Source of the DNA: a virus | Lineage: Duplodnaviria > Caudoviricetes | Length of the DNA stretch: 64,000 bases | Direction: 5' to 3' (one strand) | Virus record (IMG/VR): IMGVR_UViG_3300028048_000064 | Coordinates: 64,001 to 128,000 of that record | Shown: piece by piece, positions 55,016-64,000 of the stretch | How the letters are laid out: every line of letters starts with the position of its first letter | Position numbering within the stretch: the first letter of the stretch is position 1 | The notes under the pieces: model-generated | The model's input: only the letters and a program-made list of their open reading frames with translations | Told to the model about the DNA's origin: nothing | The model's database searches: none | Program-made: the position numbers and the translations under genes

Positions 55016-57550
55016 ATGCCAAACGTAAACAATAATATAATTACAAAAGATTGGATGGATGTACATGATGCGGTATTGACTTCCAAACTTAAAGGATTGG
55101 CCGATGCACAGATAGTCCTAACTCTTGATGCTGCTCCGGCAAATTGGGAAACCTATACTACCTATACAATCGGTACAGGGGCATCTGCCGAAGTACATGA
55201 TTTCAAGGAAGGTGATGAGGTTAGAGTACCGGACACAGGTGCTGTCAATGGCTTCTCCTATTATAAGCTTATTAAATTCACCGGAACTGGTAGTAATAAA
55301 ACTGCTACATGGGTGAAAATCGGTGATGGCACTGGTGACTATAGAGGAACTATCAAGGTAACACTGCAAGCAATTGTTAATAATGCACAAGCGTCAGGCG
55401 ATGACCTTAATGGACTTACCGTTAGTGTACAGAACGTTACAGGTAGCGAAGCTGCTATTGTAAAGACATGGGCGGGTAGTGAATTGGTATTCAATCAATT
55501 GACACCAATGAAGGAATACCTTATTACCGTACAGACAAAGAACGATACATATGTAACGAAAATCGGTGGCAATGTTGGTAATACTTATACTGTTGCATCA
55601 TTGGGTATCGCACAGGAAGTATCAAAGACATTCCAATATTTTGCAGAACAATATACAATATCAATTGACAGTAACCAAATTGATAAGACTGATATTGCCA
55701 ATGCAAAGGTTATATATAATGAAACACAATATGCTAATGGTGCTTCATTCAAAGTGCCACTTGGAACAACTATTGCAGTTGACGGCGAAAGTCAAAACGT
55801 AACAGCAACTGACTTGACAAGTACTGGTTATTCATGTGCATTGTCACTTACTAACCATGTTATTAATGCGTTGTACAGTACTGAGGTTTTATCAATTACT
55901 TCTGTAACCTCTGATAAGGCCGGTGATGATTTCGCTGGTGTCACATTTACTGTAAATAATGTTACTAAAACCTATGGTACCGATACACTTACATGGAAAA
56001 TACCATACGGTAATAGCGATATAGTTACAGCTGATAGAACAGGATTTAGTGTTACTATTACTAAAACACCTAATACAGATAAAGCTGACTCGGTATCTAA
56101 AACTGCAACAATCGCATATGAAGAAATGAAAAACGGAGTGTTCGCATATTATTCAAACGGCGATATGAAACCACTTGCACAAGCAGATAACACTGCAATT
56201 GGCGTAGCTGTTATTGATGATGATGCATGCTTTGTAATCGGAAAAAATACTACACAGTTAGCATTTGGTGGATACGGTACAGTTAATTTAACAGGTACTG
56301 CAATGGTAACAACTGATAGTACTACTGCTAAAACTGACTTTGACGGCTATCGTAACACATCAAGAATAATGAATGCACTGAAAGACCAAGCAGGCAATGG
56401 TTCAAGTCCTTATCCTGCAACTACCGGCGCTCCTGCTGCTGAATGGTGCAGAACACAATTCAATGGAGAAGGTTATCTGCCTTCATTAGGTGAAATGAAT
56501 TTTGCTTATCAACATAAAGCTGACATTGATGCAATGATGACCGCTATTGGCGGTACTGCAATGGGAACAAATTACAGCCATTGGACATCAACCCATTATA
56601 ATACAACGCAGTACTCGTGGAGGCTTAGTTGGAATGGTGGCTATGCGAATTACGGCAACCGTTATACCAATAGCTACTACGTGAGGGCGTTCCAAGCTCT
56701 TAAAACTTCAATTACTTTAAATCTTTCTGCAACGGGTAGTTCATCTATCGGTGGGCAAACCGTACTTGTGTCCGACAAATTAGGTAATGTACAAACAGCA
56801 ACATCTGATAGTAATGGTCAAGTGACATTTAGCAACGTTGCATGTGGACAGGTATTTGTTAGCGTTAAAAAATGCTTGGTTAACTCAAATCGTACAATTA
56901 AGGTGTCACCAAACAATAAAGTATTTACTATTGGGTTCAGTATCCCTAATGTAGGCCTATACTACTATAGCCTTGATAAAAATGGCAATGGCGTATTATC
57001 ACCAAGTTCAGCAACCAATGCAATTGGTGTGGCTGTTGTAACAAGTAACTGTGCATTTGTTATTGATAAAAATGATTTATCCGCAGCAAAGGGAGGTACA
57101 GGTATTGCATGGGGTGGTTATCAAGTTGATTTAAGCAATATTGGTGTAATGGTAACAGATAATAGTACAACTGCCAAAACGGACTTCTCTGGTGAGGAAA
57201 ATACTGCCAAGGTTATAAATGCATTGTACCAAGTACAAGGTGCTGCATACAACACTTATCCTGCAACGTATGGTGCTCCTGCATTGGAGACATGTACCAC
57301 TGCATTTAATGGTAAAGGCTATATGCCATCACTTGGTGAATGGAATGCTGCATACAGCAATAAATCAACGATTGACTCTATGATGCAGAATATTAGTGGA
57401 TATACAGCAATTAAAAGTGGATACCATTGGGGTAGTACAATATATAATGCTACGCAGGGCTCGTGGATTCTTTATTGGAATCTTGGCAATTCGGATGGCC
57501 TCGACCGTTATAACTATAGCAGCTACGTGAGGGCGTTCCAAGCTCTTTAA
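55016..57550 (+). CDS. DGR target protein (tail fibre/adhesin) with two tandem C-type-lectin-like domains, each ending in a variable repeat
   Basis: Duplicated AIGVAV...TAKTDF.G..NT...GAPA...GY.PSLGE...W.ST...YVRAFQAL units; both match the TR except at adenines. Confidence 0.9.
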   Translation: MPNVNNNIITKDWMDVHDAVLTSKLKGLADAQIVLTLDAAPANWETYTTYTIGTGASAEVHDFKEGDEVRVPDTGAVNGFSYYKLIKFTGTGSNKTATWVKIGDGTGDYRGTIKVTLQAIVNNAQASGDDLNGLTVSVQNVTGSEAAIVKTWAGSELVFNQLTPMKEYLITVQTKNDTYVTKIGGNVGNTYTVASLGIAQEVSKTFQYFAEQYTISIDSNQIDKTDIANAKVIYNETQYANGASFKVPLGTTIAVDGESQNVTATDLTSTGYSCALSLTNHVINALYSTEVLSITSVTSDKAGDDFAGVTFTVNNVTKTYGTDTLTWKIPYGNSDIVTADRTGFSVTITKTPNTDKADSVSKTATIAYEEMKNGVFAYYSNGDMKPLAQADNTAIGVAVIDDDACFVIGKNTTQLAFGGYGTVNLTGTAMVTTDSTTAKTDFDGYRNTSRIMNALKDQAGNGSSPYPATTGAPAAEWCRTQFNGEGYLPSLGEMNFAYQHKADIDAMMTAIGGTAMGTNYSHWTSTHYNTTQYSWRLSWNGGYANYGNRYTNSYYVRAFQALKTSITLNLSATGSSSIGGQTVLVSDKLGNVQTATSDSNGQVTFSNVACGQVFVSVKKCLVNSNRTIKVSPNNKVFTIGFSIPNVGLYYYSLDKNGNGVLSPSSATNAIGVAVVTSNCAFVIDKNDLSAAKGGTGIAWGGYQVDLSNIGVMVTDNSTTAKTDFSGEENTAKVINALYQVQGAAYNTYPATYGAPALETCTTAFNGKGYMPSLGEWNAAYSNKSTIDSMMQNISGYTAIKSGYHWGSTIYNATQGSWILYWNLGNSDGLDRYNYSSYVRAFQAL
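56606..56701 (+). repeat. DGR variable repeat VR1 (internal)
   Basis: 96-nt ungapped match to the TR; 16 mismatches, all at TR adenines. Confidence 0.95.
57452..57547 (+). repeat. DGR variable repeat VR2 (C-terminal)
   Basis: 96-nt ungapped match to the TR; 19 mismatches, all at TR adenines. Confidence 0.95.
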
Positions 57551-57555
57551 AACTT

Positions 57556-57580
57556 TATTCTCCCCAACCAGGGGAGAATA
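57556..57580 (+). promoter_or_regulatory. hairpin downstream of VR2/IMH (DGR homing hairpin and/or terminator)
   Basis: TATTCTCCCC-AACCA-GGGGAGAATA, a perfect 10-bp stem. Confidence 0.75.
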
Positions 57581-57711
57581 TTTTTTACTTTATTTAGGCT
57601 GTATTTGTTTTTTAACGCTCTTAATTGGTGAACTATCCACGTCTAAAAGTAAGGTACTTTTTGCAAATTTTGTTAAAAATACTTAAATAAAAACATTTTT
57701 TGTGAAAAATA

Positions 57712-57743
57712 TTTGTATATATGCAGAAAAAGTATTACCTTTG
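57712..57743 (+). promoter_or_regulatory. Bacteroidota sigma-A-type promoter for avd-TR-RT
   Basis: TTTG-N20-TACCTTTG. Confidence 0.75.
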
Positions 57744-57786
57744 CACAACAAAATTAAACATTAATACTTTTAAAAAGTAAAATTCG

Positions 57787-58152
57787 ATGGCAAAGACTAA
57801 TACATTATCCGTATATAAAGTTACGGAGGAACTAACAACAAGAGTTTACTTACTTATTGGTAATTATAGTAAAAAATTTAAACATACCCTTGGTGATAAA
57901 ATATGTGAAGGATGTATAGAATTACTTAGTTATATAACATATGCTAATAGGTCAGAAGAAATTGCTGTACGCATAAAGTATTTGAATGATTTTCTTTTAA
58001 AATTTGAAATTGTAAAAAATCAATTAAGATTATCTTATAAACTTAAATGTATAAGTTTAAAACAAATGACTGATATTTCTGTTTTAATCAATGACGTTGA
58101 AAAACAGATTGTTAGTTGGAAGAAATTTAGTAAAACTAAGGAAAATAAATAG
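57787..58152 (+). CDS. avd: DGR accessory variability determinant (four-helix bundle)
   Basis: Basic 121-aa helical protein (LSVYK...KFKHTLGDKI...LRLSYKLKCIS...QIVSWKK) immediately upstream of the TR and RT. Confidence 0.85.
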   Translation: MAKTNTLSVYKVTEELTTRVYLLIGNYSKKFKHTLGDKICEGCIELLSYITYANRSEEIAVRIKYLNDFLLKFEIVKNQLRLSYKLKCISLKQMTDISVLINDVEKQIVSWKKFSKTKENK

Positions 58153-58281
58153 ATAAAAAATTTTTGTCAGAATCATTGAAGTTACGGCGACAATGAGTGA
58201 ACGTTTACTATTAAAAAGAGGGGTGTGCACTGTAAACCTTTAATATTAAGGAGCAGTTAAGTGAATAGTTACACCATGAAA

Positions 58282-58377
58282 ACGCAGAACTCGTGGAAAC
58301 TTAATTGGAATAATGGCAATACGAATAACAACAACCGTTATAACAATAACAACTACGTGAGGGCGTTCCAAGAACTT
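58282..58377 (+). repeat. DGR template repeat (TR)
   Basis: 13 AAY codons and 39 adenines; parent of VR1 and VR2; followed by a GCCACTAT/ATAGTGGC hairpin in the TR-RT spacer. Confidence 0.95.
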
Positions 58378-58468
58378 TTTATAGTAGATATTAAGAGCCA
58401 CTATATTTCAAATAATAGTGGCATTTTTTTTATTAACAATTTTGTTTAATAAAAAAAAAAATAATATT

Positions 58469-59671
58469 ATGGTGGCATATGAAGACATATTTGAAGCATA
58501 TTTTGAATGCAGAAAAAAGAAAAGAGGTAAAAAAACTTCTTTAGAGTTTGAAATGAGTTATGAGGCAGAATGCGTATCTTTAGCAAATGAAATAAATAAT
58601 CGTACATATGAGATTGGTACATCTATAGCATTTTTTGTGCAAAGACCAAAGAAAAGAGAAGTCTTCGCCGCCAATTTTAGAGACCGTGTTGTCCATCATT
58701 GGTTAGCGTTAAGGCTTGAACCTTTATTTGAAAATTTGTTTATTGAAGACACATATAGTTGCAGAAAAGATAAAGGTACGCAATATGGCATTAAATGTTT
58801 AAAAGAAAAAATTGAACATTTAAGTAATAATTATACTGAAGATTGTTATGTTTCAAAATTTGATTTACAAGGCTTTTTCATGTCAATTGACAAGGAAATT
58901 CTTTGGACAAAATTAAAACACTTTATAGAAGAAAACTACAAAAACACTGTTGATTTTGATGATGTATTATGGGTAACAGAAAAAATAGTCAAGCATTGTC
59001 CGGAGAAAAACTGTATAAAACGTTCTCCTGAAAGTTGGTGGATTGGTTTCCCCGAAGACAAGTCATTATTTACTTGTGGTGAAGGGAAAGGCCTTCCAAT
59101 TGGCAATTTAACATCTCAACTATTTGCTAATTTTTATATGCATGAATTTGATGCAATGATGGTAGAAAAATTTGGAGACGGGTATGGCAGATATGTTGAT
59201 GACTTTTTCATAATTGCTAAAGATAAACAAGAGATATTGAATTTTATAAATCCAATGAAAAAGTTTCTTTTTGAAAGACTGCATGTAAAGCTTCATCATA
59301 AAAAGATGTATTTGCAGCATGGGTCAAAAGGTGTTAAATTCATTGGGGGTGTTGTCAAACCAAAACGTATTTATACGGGTAATGAAACCATAACCAACTT
59401 CTGTAATGCCATTGATGACATTAATAAAAATTATCGTAAATATACAATTGAAGACATTGTATGCCGTCTTAATAGTTATTTTGGTTTTTTGAGACACACT
59501 AAAAGCTTTAATATAAGAAAAAGAATGTTTTTAAAACTTAATTTAAAAGTTACTAGTAAGCTTTATTGCAGAGGCTTTTACGAAAGTGTTGTAATTAAAA
59601 AACAGTTTAAAAAGAAAAATAAATTAAAAAATAAGATAAGAAGTTTAATAAAGAATAGTGTTGAATTTTAA
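58469..59671 (+). CDS. DGR reverse transcriptase
   Basis: KKREVFAANFRDRVVHH, YSCRKDKG, KFDLQGFF, GLPIGNLTSQLFANFY, RYVDDF, FIG. Start moved to ATG 58469. Confidence 0.95.
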   Translation: MVAYEDIFEAYFECRKKKRGKKTSLEFEMSYEAECVSLANEINNRTYEIGTSIAFFVQRPKKREVFAANFRDRVVHHWLALRLEPLFENLFIEDTYSCRKDKGTQYGIKCLKEKIEHLSNNYTEDCYVSKFDLQGFFMSIDKEILWTKLKHFIEENYKNTVDFDDVLWVTEKIVKHCPEKNCIKRSPESWWIGFPEDKSLFTCGEGKGLPIGNLTSQLFANFYMHEFDAMMVEKFGDGYGRYVDDFFIIAKDKQEILNFINPMKKFLFERLHVKLHHKKMYLQHGSKGVKFIGGVVKPKRIYTGNETITNFCNAIDDINKNYRKYTIEDIVCRLNSYFGFLRHTKSFNIRKRMFLKLNLKVTSKLYCRGFYESVVIKKQFKKKNKLKNKIRSLIKNSVEF

Positions 59672-59719: not shown

Positions 59720-60001
59720 ATGAAACAGAAAATACTAATTAACGAAAAACAGTTGCATAACATAGTAAAAAGAACTGTGAATAATGTCTTGAAAGAATGG
59801 GACGATGTTAATGATGAGTCATATCGTGAAAAAACGTTTATTGACGATTTATATAATATACGTGCATATATTGATGCTGCAATAGAGGATGCTGAAAAAG
59901 GTAAATATACGCAAGAGAATGGAAGCTGGTGGCTAAAGCGTTTATATGATAATTGCAAGAGCTTTATCAGTAATTATGATAAGGTTTTTAATTTTTCTTA
60001 A
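59720..60001 (+). CDS. hypothetical protein (possible head-internal protein)
   Basis: N-terminal KILINEKQLHNIVKRTVNNVLKE; preceded by TATATTTAT. Confidence 0.55.
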   Translation: MKQKILINEKQLHNIVKRTVNNVLKEWDDVNDESYREKTFIDDLYNIRAYIDAAIEDAEKGKYTQENGSWWLKRLYDNCKSFISNYDKVFNFS

Positions 60002-60061
60002 AAAAACTTGATACTTTTTGAAAACTACTCTATATTTATTTTTAAAATTAACCAAATAAAA

Positions 60062-60250
60062 ATGCAGAAATCTTACATCAGCGCATCAGCAAGCAGACAA
60101 TGGCTTCAGGGAACCACAACAAGTTGTTCTCCGATTAATAGTGCGTTGTACGATAATTTTGTGCCAGCATTTGAACATGGTTTAGATTATGATAAAATTG
60201 AAAAGGGTATAAAGCAGCGAAAAAAGAAAATATTAAATGTAGCCGCATAG
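60062..60250 (+). CDS. small hypothetical protein ending in -LNVAA
   Basis: Start moved to ATG 60062; followed by a terminator. Confidence 0.5.
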   Translation: MQKSYISASASRQWLQGTTTSCSPINSALYDNFVPAFEHGLDYDKIEKGIKQRKKKILNVAA

Positions 60251-60285
60251 AAACATTCCGATTTAAAACTCAATATATTTTCCCC

Positions 60286-60331
60286 AAAGCTGTGATGAAG
60301 ACCCTAAAAAAGTAAAAATCACGGCTTTTTT
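60286..60331 (+). terminator. intrinsic terminator
   Basis: AAAGCTGTGAT...ATCACGGCTTT plus a T run. Confidence 0.55.
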
Positions 60332-60392
60332 ATATTATAATAAGGTGTATTCCTTAAAAAACATTAAATGGGATAAAAAAGTTGAGAAAATA

Positions 60393-60424
60393 TTTGGATA
60401 TTTCAAAATTAGTTAGTACCTTTG
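60393..60424 (+). promoter_or_regulatory. Bacteroidota sigma-A-type promoter for the tRNA/ncRNA cluster
   Basis: TTTG-N20-TACCTTTG. Confidence 0.75.
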
Positions 60425-60727
60425 CATCGCAATTCAGAAATAATACTTCTGATAAAGCGAAAAACGGAACAATGAGGCAGAAATACCGAATGTAAGTTTC
60501 CAAAAAGAGTTCTTTGACATATTGGGACAACAAAATAAAGCAAAAAAATCAATGCGGAGAGGATTGGTGAAAAACCACATTCATTTTTGTCTATAAGGTG
60601 ACGAATTGGGGTCAGGTAGTCAGTAATTACAAGCCCACCTTACGGGATGAGCCTATAAACAAACAAAATGAATTAGTTCAGTAAATATAAGATAGAAATA
60701 TCTAACAGAATTCCAAATTGGTGAAAT

Positions 60728-60797
60728 GCGTCTTTGGTGTAATGGTTGCATATCTGATTTCCAATCAGAAGGACAGGTTCAATTCCTGAAGACTGCT
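60728..60797 (+). tRNA. tRNA-Gly(TCC), slightly atypical
   Basis: TCTGA-TT-TCC-AA-TCAGA anticodon arm and GGTTCAATTCC T arm; acceptor GCGTCTT/AAGAC(T)GC has a bulge. Confidence 0.75.
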
Positions 60798-60802
60798 CTC
60801 TT

Positions 60803-61256
60803 TTGCATATCATAGGTAGTTTCTTCAAAATTCGGTGGAAATCCTTCCCTTCAAACCTGCAATTTATAATGTGTGGCTTAAGTATGGCGGAGGAACCACA
60901 ACACTAATCAATAATGTGCAAGGATAATACCGAGTTAAATTGAGATAATGACCTCCTTAATTGGACTGGGAAAGTTAAAAGCTTTTTATCTTATAGTACC
61001 TAAGTTGAAATTTATATAGTAGAAAAGCGGAGCACGTGTGAATCGGAGGTAACCAGTTCTAGTAGAAGCACTTCATCGTGTGGGCTGGGCATAAATGAGG
61101 AGATACTACTATGTAACTTGCAAGAATTTCAATAAGGTAATTTCAGACTACAACAAACAAAGAATAGAGGAATAGCAATTTGCTATAAACTCCACTGTCA
61201 ACTGACAGGAAGTAGGCTTTATTGTACAAACCACTTTGTTTGGCTATGATATGCAA
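60803..61256 (+). ncRNA. large (~455 nt) end-paired structured RNA candidate
   Basis: 13-bp perfect closing stem TTGCATATCATAG/CTATGATATGCAA, many internal helices, and no ORF in the track. Confidence 0.6.
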
Positions 61257-61272
61257 TCTTTAGAAAATATAT

Positions 61273-61562
61273 AGAACAAGTACAGACCACTGAGTAGGAA
61301 CTGGGGAAGTGATAGGTAAATGCTAGCTTCATATTTATCATGTAGACGGACTCAAAGCAGTACCGACAGCCCAGTGAAAGGTGTTGGTTAGGATAAGGAG
61401 TTATCCAATACGTGAAGAGCAGCGTATTTCGTGAGAAGCCATAAGCAGGAACACAACAAATGCCGTAAAACAGCGCAAGTGCCTAATAGCGGGTTTCCTG
61501 ATTAAATCTGAATAGATGATAAAAGGTTGCAAAAGTCTGTACCTCGTAAATTTACTTGTTCT
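61273..61562 (+). ncRNA. ~290-nt end-paired structured RNA candidate
   Basis: AGAACAAGTA/TACTTGTTCT and GTACAGAC/GTCTGTAC pairings plus internal hairpins. Confidence 0.55.
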
Positions 61563-61569
61563 TTTGAAT

Positions 61570-61641
61570 GCTTGGATAGCTCAGAGGCAGAGCATCGCAC
61601 TGTTAATGCGAGGGTCGGGATATCGTAATTCTCTCCAAGCG
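61570..61641 (+). tRNA. tRNA-Asn(GTT) with non-canonical T arm
   Basis: GCTTGGA/TCCAAGC acceptor, TAGCTCAG D arm, TCGCA-CT-GTT-AA-TGCGA; T loop reads ATCGTAA. Confidence 0.75.
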
Positions 61642-61658
61642 CAAAATATTTTTGTATT

Positions 61659-61779
61659 AAAAACTCCGAGGGTTGGAAGATGGTTGGACTTACGGCAAAT
61701 GCTAGGAACCTGATGAACCGTAAGTCAAAGGTGTGTTGTAGGAGTTGCAGGTGAAACGGACAACAGTGTAGGAGTTTTT
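61659..61779 (+). ncRNA. ~120-nt structured RNA candidate between tRNAs
   Basis: AAAAACTCC/GGAGTTTTT, GACTTACGG/CCGTAAGTC and TGTTGT/ACAACA helices. Confidence 0.5.
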
Positions 61780-61785
61780 TTATAT

Positions 61786-61943
61786 GTGGCAGTAACTCAG
61801 TTGGTAGAGTGCCGGACTGAATACAGAGTAAACTGAAAAATCAAACTTCGTATTGGTTGAGTGGCTGAAACTTTTAAACATTGGTTCGAATCCAATATAC
61901 GAAGCAAATCCGGTTGTCGGTGGTTCAAATCCACCCTGCCGCA
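61786..61943 (+). tRNA. tRNA-Phe(GAA) interrupted by an 85-nt insert (61822-61906) containing a tRNA-like module
   Basis: Removing the insert gives a canonical cloverleaf: GTGGCAG/CTGCCGC, CCGGA-CT-GAA-AA-TCCGG, GGTGG-TTCAAAT-CCACC. Confidence 0.88.
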
Positions 61944-61971
61944 CATTTATATGAAAAAAAAACGTTCGAAA

Positions 61972-62003
61972 CTTGTTTATTCAACTATTTATTAGTATAT
62001 TTG
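61972..62003 (+). promoter_or_regulatory. Bacteroidota sigma-A-type promoter for the endonuclease
   Basis: CTTG-N20-TATATTTG. Confidence 0.65.
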
Positions 62004-62021
62004 CAATATATTAGTAAAAAA

Positions 62022-63068
62022 ATGAAAATGATTGATATTACAAGCGACGAAAACAAGAGAGAAATTTACAAATTATTTGATTCTTTTAATAAAAAAGAAG
62101 ACATATACAATTATTTTGGAATAAGTCATAATAGCTATGGTGTTAAGTATGTTAATGCTATTGCATTAGAGATTAATTTTGATTTAAATATTTATCATAA
62201 AAGACGTTTTCCGGAAAGATTTTGTTTAAATTGTGGAAAAAAATTAAAAAAAGGACAAAAGAAATTTTGTGGCCATTCTTGTTCAGCCTCATATAATAAT
62301 GCTACAAGTGCAAAAGTTGTTAATAAGAAGAAAAAACAAGTAAAAAGTCGGGTAAACAAACAAAATAAATGTAAAGTATGTGGAAAAATAGATTGTTTAC
62401 ATACAGGCGTTTGTAATCATCATTCTTTAAATTGGTTTGATAATCTTATATATTTCGGTTTTGATAAAACGAAGTTAGGAACTGATGGCGTTTTTAATGA
62501 ATATGAAAATGTAAAAAAGAAAATTTCAGATGAATATAAAAATGGTTTGTCTGTATCTGCAATCAAAGAAAAATATAATTATCAGGGTTCAACTGAACGT
62601 CTTGTTCATGTTATGAAAAACATGGGAATTAATTTACGTTGTTTATCTGATGCTTTGCGTAAAGCCATTAGCGAAAAACGTTGTAAATTGCCAGAAGTTA
62701 TGAAACAATTTAATTATGGGTGGCATAATACATGGGATGGATACAAAGTTTTTTATCGCAGTTCATATGAATATGATTTATGCAAATATTTTGATGACAG
62801 AAAAATACACTATGAAATGGAAAATTTAGTAATTGAGTATTTTGACACCATTTTAAATAAAAAGCGTTATGCGTTACCAGATTTTTATATTGAAAAAGAG
62901 AATAAAATTATAGAAGTTAAATCAAGAGTGACATTTGTTAAACAGAATATGATAGATAAAATGAAACGTTATATAGAGTTAGGGTATGATGTTTTATTAA
63001 ATTATGAGCATAAAATGTATACCTTTGATGAAATGCTTAAAATTGAAGAATATAAGTATAAGATTTAA
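62022..63068 (+). CDS. free-standing homing-type endonuclease: zinc finger plus C-terminal PD-(D/E)xK (TnsA-N-like) domain
   Basis: CLNCGK...KFCGHSC zinc finger; YRSSYE...YALPDFYI...IIEVK. Start moved to ATG 62022. Confidence 0.75.
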   Translation: MKMIDITSDENKREIYKLFDSFNKKEDIYNYFGISHNSYGVKYVNAIALEINFDLNIYHKRRFPERFCLNCGKKLKKGQKKFCGHSCSASYNNATSAKVVNKKKKQVKSRVNKQNKCKVCGKIDCLHTGVCNHHSLNWFDNLIYFGFDKTKLGTDGVFNEYENVKKKISDEYKNGLSVSAIKEKYNYQGSTERLVHVMKNMGINLRCLSDALRKAISEKRCKLPEVMKQFNYGWHNTWDGYKVFYRSSYEYDLCKYFDDRKIHYEMENLVIEYFDTILNKKRYALPDFYIEKENKIIEVKSRVTFVKQNMIDKMKRYIELGYDVLLNYEHKMYTFDEMLKIEEYKYKI

Positions 63069-63075
63069 ATAATTT

Positions 63076-63274
63076 GGGAGGTTATTCCGTAAGTGGTAGC
63101 GGGGCTGACTGTATACAGAGTAAACTGAAAATCAAATTTTAGTTTGGCTGAGTGGTTGAAAGCTAAGGCACTAAGTGCTGAGTGAATTTACACTCACATT
63201 CGCCGGTTCGAATCCGACAACTAAAACAAATCAGCTGCTTAACGGCTCGGGTGGTTCGACTCCATCACCTCCCA
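63076..63274 (+). tRNA. tRNA-Tyr(GTA) interrupted by a 115-nt insert (63114-63228) containing a tRNA-like module
   Basis: Removing the insert gives GGGAGGT/ACCTCCC, GCTGA-CT-GTA-AA-TCAGC, a long variable arm and GGTGG-TTCGACT-CCATC. Confidence 0.88.
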
Positions 63275-63308
63275 CATAATTTTTCATAACTAATGTTTCT
63301 GATTGAAT

Positions 63309-63599
63309 ATGTTACAGAAAATTAAAGAAAAATATAAACGATACAAAAGGTTAAAAGGACTTAGAACATATCGTAAGTTAAGAAACACTTTTGATACTGA
63401 ATATGGAAAATTCCTTGCTTATATGTATTATGTCGGTGGTGAAGGAAAATTAGAAGACTTATATAAGTTATTTAATCCTGAAATAATTAGACGTGCTTGG
63501 TTTGCCGGATATTTTAACGTCTATGATAAAAATTTAGGGTGGAAAGACCATCTGTACAATACAGATGTATATAAAAAATATGATAATGGAAAAAAATAA
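63309..63599 (+). CDS. hypothetical protein
   Basis: Basic ~96-aa ORF within the tRNA cluster. Confidence 0.5.
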   Translation: MLQKIKEKYKRYKRLKGLRTYRKLRNTFDTEYGKFLAYMYYVGGEGKLEDLYKLFNPEIIRRAWFAGYFNVYDKNLGWKDHLYNTDVYKKYDNGKK

Positions 63600-63832
63600 A
63601 ATTCAGACCCGATGTTTTGCTGTGTCAGAGTAAATAAACAGTAGGTGGGATATGGTATGTCACCTTGATAGAAGAAACAGAGAGAAACTGTGCTAATATC
63701 AGAATAAACCATTAATACTAGTTAAGGGTAATGAGGTTTTGTAGGTAAGGAAACCGCCGCACTAAGTTTGGAAACAATAAATAAGAACTAAGTGAAATGG
63801 TAAGTTGGTTTATGGATTTCCAACGTAAATTT

Positions 63833-63905
63833 AGCCCATTCATCTAGCGGCCTAGGATACATGCCTCTCACGCATGTCACAGCAGTTCAAATCTGCTATG
63901 GGTTA
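63833..63905 (+). tRNA. tRNA-Glu(CTC)
   Basis: AGCCCAT/ATGGGTT, CATGC-CT-CTC-AC-GCATG, AGCAG-TTCAAAT-CTGCT. Confidence 0.88.
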
Positions 63906-63916
63906 CAAATTATTTT

Positions 63917-63993
63917 GGGGGCGTAGTTCAGTTGGCTAGAACATCTGCTTTGCAAGCAGGGGGTCGTGGGTTCAAGTCCCACCGTCTCCACCA
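63917..63993 (+). tRNA. tRNA-Ala(TGC) with encoded CCA
   Basis: GGGGGCG/CGTCTCC with G3-U70, TT-TGC-AA loop, GTGGG-TTCAAGT-CCCAC, ACCA. Confidence 0.95.
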
Positions 63994-64000
63994 ACTTGAT

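Follow-up and report, generated by a model that had tools for sequence, protein, structure and literature searches.

Textbooks, to our knowledge, hold protein-spliced tRNA introns to be absent from bacteria. The closest described elements come from Lak megaphages, whose tRNA-Phe(GAA), tRNA-Gly(TCC), tRNA-Thr(TGT), and tRNA-Tyr(GTA) were reported to carry highly conserved introns; these were termed enigmatic, one of them "itself may encode a tRNA", and their splicing was not shown (Devoto et al. 2019, Nat Microbiol; PMC6784885). A 2026 survey of jumbo phages (PMC13037316) found tRNA introns in 77% of recoded jumbo phages and stated that they "could encode another tRNA". We found no mechanism for Lak-type tRNA introns in the literature, and the Lak papers give neither an architecture nor a boundary rule. 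Here, we describe two tRNA genes, tRNA-Phe(GAA) and tRNA-Tyr(GUA), that are interrupted in the anticodon loop in a 64,000-nucleotide stretch of phage DNA (the window), corresponding to bases 64001-128000 of an IMG/VR virus record of 149,924 bp. Both inserts contain a mimic of the top half of a tRNA and, as judged from a structure-aware model, belong to the Lak class; we tentatively propose that such introns are removed by tRNA-end nucleases together with a phage RNA ligase.

The window belongs to a rumen jumbo phage with an estimated genome size of ~365 kb (the record being 41% complete by CheckV) and a GC content of 33% in this region, and sequencing runs carrying the stretch were bovine, sheep, and other gut or rumen metagenomes. 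The interrupted genes stand at the start of a long tRNA array with 26 Rfam tRNA matches. Four genomes were compared, two of them complete: the window phage (G000), a sister phage of 235,653 bp that was reached via the exact intron leader (G001), and the Lak phages Lak-A1 and Lak-B1.

The whole tRNA-Phe(GAA) gene (61786-61943, + strand, as are all features below) matched the Rfam tRNA model with 52.4 bits and an 88-nt gap in the anticodon loop. Exon 1 (61786..61820) holds the acceptor 5' strand, the D arm, the 5' strand of the anticodon stem, and CUGA, with a border that may shift one base rightwards because of an ambiguous A; exon 2 (61906..61943) supplies AAA, the 3' strand of the anticodon stem, the variable loop, the T arm, the acceptor 3' strand, and A73, and is directly followed by C-A. 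Between the two lies an 85-nt intron (61821..61905), called at that length by ARAGORN in intron mode and scored at 106 bits by the covariance model R1 described below. It opens with A-U-A, followed by a leader hairpin, CAG-AGUAAA-CUG (61824..61835), an A-rich single-stranded linker, AAAAAUCAAA (61836..61845), that would be the mimic's 5' leader for RNase P, the tRNA top-half mimic itself (61846..61904; checked base by base), and a final C. The mimic consists of an 8-bp stem (61846-61853/61897-61904) and then UG, a D-like arm with GG (61856-61871), an 8-nt linker in the place of the anticodon and variable arms, and a T arm, AUUGG-UUCGAAU-CCAAU (61880-61896).

The second gene (63076-63274) is a class II tRNA-Tyr(GUA) with a long variable arm and A73, both read from the sequence, features that fit a bacterial-type tRNA-Tyr. 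Its exons (63076..63112 and 63228..63274) are each 100% identical to those of tRNA-Tyr in G001. The 115-nt intron (63113..63227; model R1, 46.8 bits, E=3e-8) begins with a 24-nt leader that it has in common with the Phe intron, including the hairpin CAG-AGUAAA-CUG (63116..63127), and continues with a class-II-like mimic (63137..63226; stem 63137-63144/63219-63226, D arm 63147-63163, T arm 63202-63218) and a final C. Of the two introns, this one alone has degenerate anticodon and variable arms (63164-63201). Its inner element matched the Rfam tRNA model at 63138-63226 with 34 bits, and ARAGORN, at a relaxed threshold only, took the mimic for a Leu(UAA)-like tRNA with a 3-bp anticodon stem.

Within the window, the 18-nt leader sequence TACAGAGTAAACTGAAAA is present in exactly two copies, at 61822 and 63114; allowing ≤3 mismatches yielded three matches, a count reached by 0/100 shuffles. 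Both mimic stems pair perfectly (CTTCGTAT/ATACGAAG and TTTTAGTT/AACTAAAA), and the predicted spliced junctions are GGACUGAAAAUCCGG for Phe and UGACUGUAAAUCAGC for Tyr. A sequence-only reading of this DNA had placed an interruption in the anticodon loop of both tRNAs, and Rfam tRNA matches, ARAGORN, and our base-by-base check put it in the same place. The insert ends are better described as the stem plus C than as the terminal CA proposed there, since the A is the ambiguous base; the break therefore lies at 35/36 or 36/37. The tRNA likeness it had seen comprises the stem, the D-like arm, and the T arm of both inserts; the inner elements are incomplete tRNAs, that of Phe having no anticodon arm and that of Tyr only a 3-bp anticodon stem with a mismatch, and neither has CCA 3' of it. 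What they do retain are the features of an RNase P/RNase Z substrate, namely, an 8+5 bp stack, GG in the D loop, a UUCGAAU-type T loop, and an unpaired A-rich leader. The suggestion that the mimic copies the part of a tRNA that is read by tRNA-end nucleases, i.e., the acceptor/T stack and the D/T elbow, thus agrees with what is present.

ARAGORN in its default mode missed both interrupted genes; its intron mode called tRNA-Phe as Cys and left the outer tRNA-Tyr uncalled. The call of Cys(GCA) for the first gene was rejected as an artefact, in which the intron had been set two bases too far to the left, and A73 fits Phe. The anticodons that the program assigned to interrupted genes in general (Cys, Ser, Gly, Val, Lys) were likewise set aside as artefacts of where it had placed the intron.

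Model R1 was built from three rumen-phage copies only and found full-length copies in the window phage, G001, and both Lak phages, at E values from 3e-22 to 7e-5. In Lak-A1, two copies scored 45 and 40 bits (E=6e-8 and 1e-6), and in Lak-B1 one scored 32 bits (E=7e-5), each inside a tRNA anticodon loop. By this measure, the window introns are the "enigmatic" tRNA introns of Lak megaphages (Devoto 2019), a class already in print. The novelty that the sequence-only reading had proposed for the insert family is thereby lost, the class having been published in 2019 (PMC6784885) and again in 2026 (PMC13037316), and its pointer to intron-containing tRNAs in Lak megaphages proved apt, since R1 assigns both to the same family. 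In G001, the same intron plan is found in tRNA-Asn, -Tyr, -Thr, -Lys, and -Arg. The outer cloverleafs of the relatives fold, and their minimum-free-energy folds show the hairpin-linker-mimic layout.

Among nine aligned members, pairing was observed in 99.3% of cells, versus 24 to 42% when the partner column was slid, and double-sided changes were present in 14/16 pairs (8/8 in the mimic stem, 4/5 in the T stem, and 2/3 in the leader hairpin). MAFFT alone misaligned divergent members, and pairs were hence counted on an alignment fitted to the model, which leans towards structure; the compensatory changes are, however, visible by eye. The hairpin stem, for example, occurs as CAG/CUG, AUGG/CCAU, ACGG/CCGU, CAGG/CCUG, and CAAUC/GAUUG. 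Its loop is 6 nt long and A-rich (AGUAAA, AGAGAA, AAACAA, AAUAAA) in the nine aligned members and in the Lak-A1 Thr intron, the exception being the G001 Arg intron, which has a 9-nt loop. From rumen phages through Lak, the linker motif AAAUYAA was kept, and members that have a T arm kept the GG of the D-like loop, the T loop, and the unpaired A-rich linker; the G001 Arg intron retained GG and is without a canonical T loop. Invariant in all members are U at intron position +2, A at +3, and the final C. The perfect stems and the double-sided changes bear out the idea of one structured, covarying family. On the alignment, intron structure is under selection, and the conserved core corresponds to the tRNA top half and its elbow, the anticodon arm appearing dispensable.

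Two further introns differ in detail. In the tRNA-Arg(UCU) of G001 (L005:14313-14466), the intron is 78 nt long, sits at 33/34, and has a body without a canonical T loop. A Thr(CGU)-like tRNA of the window genome (G000:C1:136097-136262) is also interrupted, by an insert that ARAGORN gave as 93 nt with unreliable placement and in which the hairpin follows a fuller tRNA-like body.

Where the introns begin and end turned out to follow a simple rule. If an intron is taken to run from N-U-A through to the stem plus C, its removal restores a canonical 7-nt loop with U33 and A37 in 12/12 genes (restored loops: CUGAAAA, CUGUAAA, CUGUUAA, CUUGUAA, CUUUUAA, and CUUCUAA). Under this rule, the loop breaks at 33/34 in Arg, at 35/36 in Asn, and at 36/37 in Thr, Lys, and Lak Phe, and the restored anticodons agree with the tRNA bodies, e.g., G73 and a class I shape for Asn. 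Placement of the Asn introns at 35/36 made use of the intron-less tRNA-Asn(GUU) of the window (61570..61641; Rfam tRNA, 50.8 bits), a homologue of the intron-bearing Asn genes of G001 and Lak that has its D arm, its odd T arm, and G73 in common with the G001 gene at L005:6018-6175. The G001 tRNA-Arg(UCU), with its break at 33/34, is syntenic with an intron-less tRNA-Arg(UCU) of the window genome. A rule fixed on the tRNA instead (always 36/37) was rejected: it would make a "Tyr" of the class I gene with G73 and turn Arg into an amber suppressor. From these genes, the intron ends are set by the intron and not by the tRNA. Since the loop breaks at three positions under one intron rule, the cutting activity would measure from the intron helices and not from the tRNA body.

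In Lak, the gene that was reported as an intron-bearing tRNA-Tyr(GTA) (L123:2900-3065, L124:2849-3065) is of class I with G73, and an intron-less class II tRNA-Tyr lies nearby. This Lak "Tyr(GTA)" is probably a second tRNA-Asn(GUU), with its intron at 35/36.

A second regularity concerns the 3' end. Of 83 tRNA genes called by ARAGORN in the four phages (G000:C1:124728-136262 for the window phage, L005 for G001, and L166 and L167 for Lak-A1/B1), 78 have C at position 74, nearly all have C74 followed by A or T, and few encode CCA, a 3' signature that is both unusual and uniform. Every intron 3' end (12/12) shows the same context as these phage tRNA 3' ends: stem, N, C, and then A or U across the cut. 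On this likeness, the intron 3' site imitates the site at which the phage's own tRNAs have their 3' ends matured. If the mimic stem is read as 8 bp, C would take the place of the discriminator and the cut would fall on the canonical RNase Z bond.

The interrupted genes are the sole tRNA-Phe and tRNA-Tyr genes found in the 150-kb record, which, together with the identity of the Tyr exons, points to selection on the exons. While these exons (37 + 47 nt) are identical in the two rumen phages, the Tyr introns have only the 24-nt leader in common, and it is the window Phe intron that the G001 Tyr intron resembles (77/85 identical). Moreover, tRNA-Phe, -Thr, -Lys, -Arg, and -Asn have an intron in one rumen phage and none in the other. 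By these comparisons, intron types swap between tRNA genes.

HNH endonuclease open reading frames (ORFs) were found among the tRNA genes. A 348-amino-acid ORF (62022-63068) lies between the interrupted tRNA-Phe and tRNA-Tyr and is absent from that place in G001; its N-terminal part is Zn-ribbon-like, residues 263-307 gave a weak TnsA-like PD-(D/E)XK match (E=0.04), and its C-terminal part is labeled "head closure" by PHROGs. The ORF is possibly a free-standing homing nuclease.

A candidate for the joining step, which the sequence-only reading had assigned to an RNA ligase with RtcB and Rnl ligases in mind, is encoded in the array itself. A PF09414 RNA ligase of 244 amino acids with an intact KxDG motif (98 to 99 bits) is encoded inside the tRNA array at G000:C1:132056-132790, 4 kb past the window end, and has a 94%-identical counterpart in the G001 array, its only relative in the viral contigs; the protein is without a sequence match in PDB or NCBIfam. 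Lak-A1 and Lak-B1 have several PF09414 genes each, one of which adjoins the tRNA region. RtcB was not found in any of the four genomes, with the Bacteroides thetaiotaomicron control genome positive, nor was EndA (PF01974), with four archaeal controls positive, and T4-type Rnl1 (PF09511) was not found in the two rumen phages. The presence of an ATP-dependent ligase and the absence of RtcB and EndA in the four phages fit a chemistry of 3'-OH and 5'-phosphate ends.

From the anatomy, the covariation, the family membership, the intron-defined boundaries, and the ligase gene, we infer both splicing itself and its enzymatic steps, as follows. Once folded, the intron would present a tRNA top half, in which the 8-bp stem and the T arm stack and the GG of the D loop closes the elbow. 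The RNase Z-type nuclease that trims the phage tRNAs would then cut after the C 3' of the stem, leaving exon 2 with a 5' phosphate. A second cut, before N-U-A and three bases upstream of the leader hairpin, would leave exon 1 with a 3' OH; the invariant U+2 and A+3 just upstream of the hairpin suggest an endonuclease, and our guess would be a single-strand endonuclease of the RNase E/G type. RNase P may additionally separate the leader from the mimic. The outer cloverleaf would hold the two exons together as a nicked 7-nt anticodon loop, which the ATP-dependent RNA ligase encoded in the array would seal. We put the probability that Lak-type introns are removed in this way, by tRNA-end nucleases and a phage RNA ligase, at roughly 45%.

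The original form of this idea, in which RNase P and an RNase Z-type enzyme make the two cuts and a ligase rejoins the halves, has to be amended at the 5' side. The intron 3' boundary lies exactly where a tRNA 3'-end nuclease would cut, and the ligase gene is there, but RNase P does not suit as the source of the 5' cut. RNase P would cut where the mimic stem begins (before 61846 and 63137), which is 25 and 24 nt 3' of the 5' splice site. Cleavage there would leave a leader of 24 to 25 nt (NUA, hairpin, and linker) on exon 1, so RNase P cannot set the 5' splice site; and because the distance from the anticodon stem to the end of exon 1 varies among the tRNAs (2, 4, or 5 nt), exonuclease trimming offers no explanation either.

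Several points weigh against the proposed route. RNase P and RNase Z alone leave the 5' splice site unexplained, so that a further activity is needed, and the only grounds for guessing at an RNase E/G-like enzyme are the invariant U+2 and A+3; such enzymes favor U at +2. At the 3' site, a 7-bp stem with an additional -1:73 pair would put the cut after C74, one base beyond the described site of RNase Z. Repair of anticodon-nuclease damage, following the T4 paradigm, would likewise account for RNA ligases in phage tRNA clusters, and the ligases of the rumen phages are not close relatives of those of the Lak phages (no tblastn match). The phage record is only 41% complete, and the enzyme searches covered the phage genomes alone. 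Finally, in contigs over 61500-63400 from two rumen metatranscriptome runs of one sample and from two DNA runs, no spliced junction, no excised intron, and no joint at the intron borders was found; unspliced RNA contigs span 61752-63400 at depths of about 40 and 3.5-7.7. Ordinary RNA-seq contigs capture mature tRNAs poorly, so this unspliced-only result is weak either way, and splicing is neither shown nor excluded by it.

That only unspliced RNA and DNA contigs were seen is what one would expect if the inserts were not spliced at all, being either mobile DNA that inactivates tRNA genes or, as the sequence-only reading had considered, part of a two-headed RNA that serves as a decoy or shield against host anticodon nucleases. 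The movement of an intron type between genes (the 77/85 identity of the Phe intron and the G001 Tyr intron) and the homing-endonuclease-like ORFs that crowd the arrays are in keeping with such a view. We nonetheless regard it as quite unlikely: once the insert is taken out, 12/12 genes, with breaks at three loop positions, have a perfect 7-nt loop bearing the right anticodon, the exons show no damage and are identical between phages, no other tRNA-Phe or tRNA-Tyr was seen in the record, and Lak introns are identical across cohorts (PMC6784885). A new small self-cleaving or self-splicing RNA, with an active site formed from N-U-A, the hairpin loop, the linker, and the final C and with exons joined by host RtcB or, after end healing, by the phage ligase, would account for the conserved single-stranded nucleotides at both junctions and for boundaries that are autonomous to the intron; Bacteroidota hosts can carry RtcB, as the B. 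thetaiotaomicron control genome does. It would have to be built, however, from about ten invariant nonhelical bases, mostly those of the standard T loop and GG, in 85 nt with two plain helices that leave little room for a catalytic core, no Rfam ribozyme or group I match was obtained at E values up to 5, and the phages hold ATP-dependent ligases that need 3'-OH and 5'-P ends, and no RtcB. A ribozyme therefore seems improbable to us.

An unrecognized, dedicated endonuclease of phage or host could also make both cuts by reading the three-way junction of anticodon stem, leader hairpin, and mimic stem, after which the ligase would join the exons; the tRNA shape would then serve folding, stability, or a job of the excised intron. 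This would explain why both splice sites are fixed relative to the intron helices, and stacking of the hairpin on the mimic stem would bring the two sites together, four bases apart (the final C and N-U-A). N-U-A, the 6-nt loop, and the linker have also been kept from rumen phages to Lak beyond the needs of a spacer, and many ORFs in the arrays are without a family. On the other hand, no candidate protein was found, EndA homologues being absent from the four phages, and the retention of exactly those elements that form the elbow is left unexplained, as is the likeness of the 3' site to phage tRNA 3' ends. We consider a dedicated endonuclease unlikely.

A different possible product of RNA ligation was observed upstream of the intron-less tRNA-Asn. 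Contigs of 327 nt (depth 899) and 329 nt (depth 562) start at 61464, reach 61565 or 61569, and resume at 61269 or 61271, which joins 61565/61567 back to 61269. In each contig, the first and last 30 nt coincide, the pattern that a 31-mer unitig closed on itself would show for a circle of 297 or 299 nt. The depth of the closed unitig is 20 to 100 times that of its neighbors (about 40 and 6), while depth is flat in the DNA runs, and the circle junction differs by 2 nt between the two RNA runs. In G001 (L005:6175-6475), the element (61269-61567) is 90% conserved between flanks that are unrelated; it has no Rfam match. It folds with a 10-bp terminal stem, its 5' end begins with AUA, as in the introns, and joining of its ends gives a 7-nt anticodon-like loop, UUU/AUAU (the slash marking the joint). 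If real, the 297/299-nt circle means that this phage has RNA ends ligated at a junction resembling an anticodon loop, and it would be an indirect sign of RNA ligation in vivo. A wider claim, that the introns represent a third tRNA splicing route in bacterial viruses, distinct from ribozymes and from EndA (a 3'-end nuclease borrowed by the mimic, N-U-A plus hairpin as the 5' signal, and a ligase) that also makes this neighboring 297-nt circle, appears doubtful to us.

Other noncoding stretches lie close by. Between tRNA-Asn and tRNA-Phe, positions 61657-61781 are expressed (RNA contig depth, 77), 95% conserved in G001 (L005:6507-6637), and end in the terminator-like run GGAGTTTTTTT. Downstream of tRNA-Tyr, a noncoding block (63599-63832) is 95 to 99% identical to its G001 counterpart, has no Rfam match, and includes GTCAGAGTAAATAAACAG, a sequence reminiscent of the hairpin in the intron leader. 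Further upstream, the window holds a diversity-generating retroelement (56597-59671) with a reverse transcriptase (58418-59671; RVT_1, 72 bits), a template repeat at about 58273-58381, and variable repeats at 56597-56705 and 57443-57551 that differ from the template mostly at template adenines (18/25 and 23/29).

Among 2.9 M viral contigs, the exact 18-mer leader occurred in G001 only, plus one chance match in a coding region, and a looser leader pattern gave mostly chance matches. Combining the leader with a T loop returned Lak-like contigs and an unrelated-looking structured RNA in other tRNA arrays; combining the linker with a T loop returned 30 loci, in which the model found two free-standing mimics only and no introns. 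The leader pattern revealed no tRNA intron in 185,579 bacterial and archaeal genomes, and a BLAST search of the introns against 50,697 phage records gave only short T-arm matches, which nevertheless pointed to Lak loci. In Lachnospiraceae and related Clostridia (L204, L205, L206, L215, L217-L221, L224-L226), a conserved element ending in CATTACAGAGTAAACTGCTAAAAATCAA lies directly before a terminator hairpin; it has a hairpin-plus-linker motif as in the intron leader and no tRNA mimic. This cluster of leader-pattern matches was rejected as introns, being a different, terminator-adjacent element. Other phage tRNA arrays (L158:7690-8020, L162, L164; L169:12230-12302; L191:8116-8205) contain an unannotated structured RNA of ~330 nt with CAGAGTAAACTG and a T-loop arm, and in these same arrays, units of hairpin, A-rich linker, and tRNA top half stand free, outside tRNAs.

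What is new here, then, are the boundary rule, the parallel between the intron 3' context (N-C, then A or U) and that of tRNA 3' ends, and the inability of RNase P alone to make the 5' cut, along with the ATP-dependent RNA ligase genes in or near each tRNA region, the absence of EndA and RtcB, and the swapping of intron types between tRNA genes. If cutting of the RNase Z/P type and phage ligation were true, they would amount to a new splicing route and would provide, in addition to damage repair, a physiological substrate for the RNA ligases of phages and bacteria. In practice, tRNA finders overlook or misname phage tRNAs that contain such introns, which distorts estimates of codon supply and of stop-codon recoding.

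How do these introns compare with described systems? Group I tRNA introns, such as those of tRNA-Leu(UAA) and Azoarcus tRNA-Ile, likewise occupy the anticodon loop, are mobile, and often have homing endonuclease genes nearby; they are, however, ~200 nt or more in length with a conserved catalytic core (P3-P8) and a terminal G, whereas the window introns are 85 to 115 nt with a terminal C. A group I intron was rejected here: there was no group I match among 4227 Rfam families at E values up to 5, and 12/12 introns end in C. Rfam families other than tRNA gave nothing either, whether at the gathering threshold or at E values up to 5. The 5' exons of the twelve introns end in A or U, and not in U as a rule. 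Known small ribozymes (hammerhead, twister, pistol, hatchet, and HDV-like/theta) were rejected as well, no model matching within 60000-64000 at E values up to 5 with permissive filters. Introns of the EndA/TSEN type are dependent on protein, lie in the anticodon loop, and have exons that are held by the cloverleaf and joined by a ligase, all of which we propose for the window introns too. They differ in their bulge-helix-bulge, where a 4-bp helix between two 3-nt bulges holds both splice sites, in their position (37/38, versus 33/34 to 36/37 for window-type introns), and in their ends (cyclic phosphate and 5'-OH, versus the 3'-OH and 5'-P expected here). A bulge-helix-bulge intron was rejected on the folds, which put both sites in the junction of anticodon stem, leader hairpin, and mimic stem, and on the absence of EndA from the four phages; in the folds, the 3' end of the intron is wholly taken up by the 8-bp stem. 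With no group I core or Rfam match and with sites in a multihelix junction, the inserts are, as the sequence-only reading had it, neither group I nor bulge-helix-bulge introns.

Nearer in spirit are mascRNA (at the MALAT1 3' end), plant mitochondrial t-elements, and mitochondrial tRNA punctuation, in which an internal tRNA mimic recruits RNase P and RNase Z. Signals of the mascRNA type only cut, whereas the window introns would need their flanks to be rejoined and have an extra, conserved leader hairpin. For the joining, the repair by T4 Pnkp and Rnl1 of anticodon loops broken by PrrC offers a parallel, with an ATP-dependent, phage-borne ligase encoded beside tRNA genes and a nicked anticodon loop as the substrate; in contrast to T4, the window phage has a short PF09414 ligase and not Rnl1, no Pnkp was found beside the ligase gene, and the role in splicing rather than in repair is inferred only. 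The archaeal Rnl3, which circularizes small RNAs (PMC9014305), is alike in being an ATP-dependent ligase that acts on juxtaposed ends. The closest likeness remains that to the Lak introns, which have a leader hairpin, an A-rich linker, and a tRNA-like body ending in C and which interrupt similar kinds of tRNA (Phe GAA, Thr UGU, and "Tyr GTA"). The Lak phages, at 540 kb and 26% GC, are of a different lineage than the window phage (~365 kb, 33% GC in the region), and their hairpin loops include AAACAA and AAUAAA besides AGUAAA, the last of which is common to the Lak-A1 Phe intron and the introns of the window.

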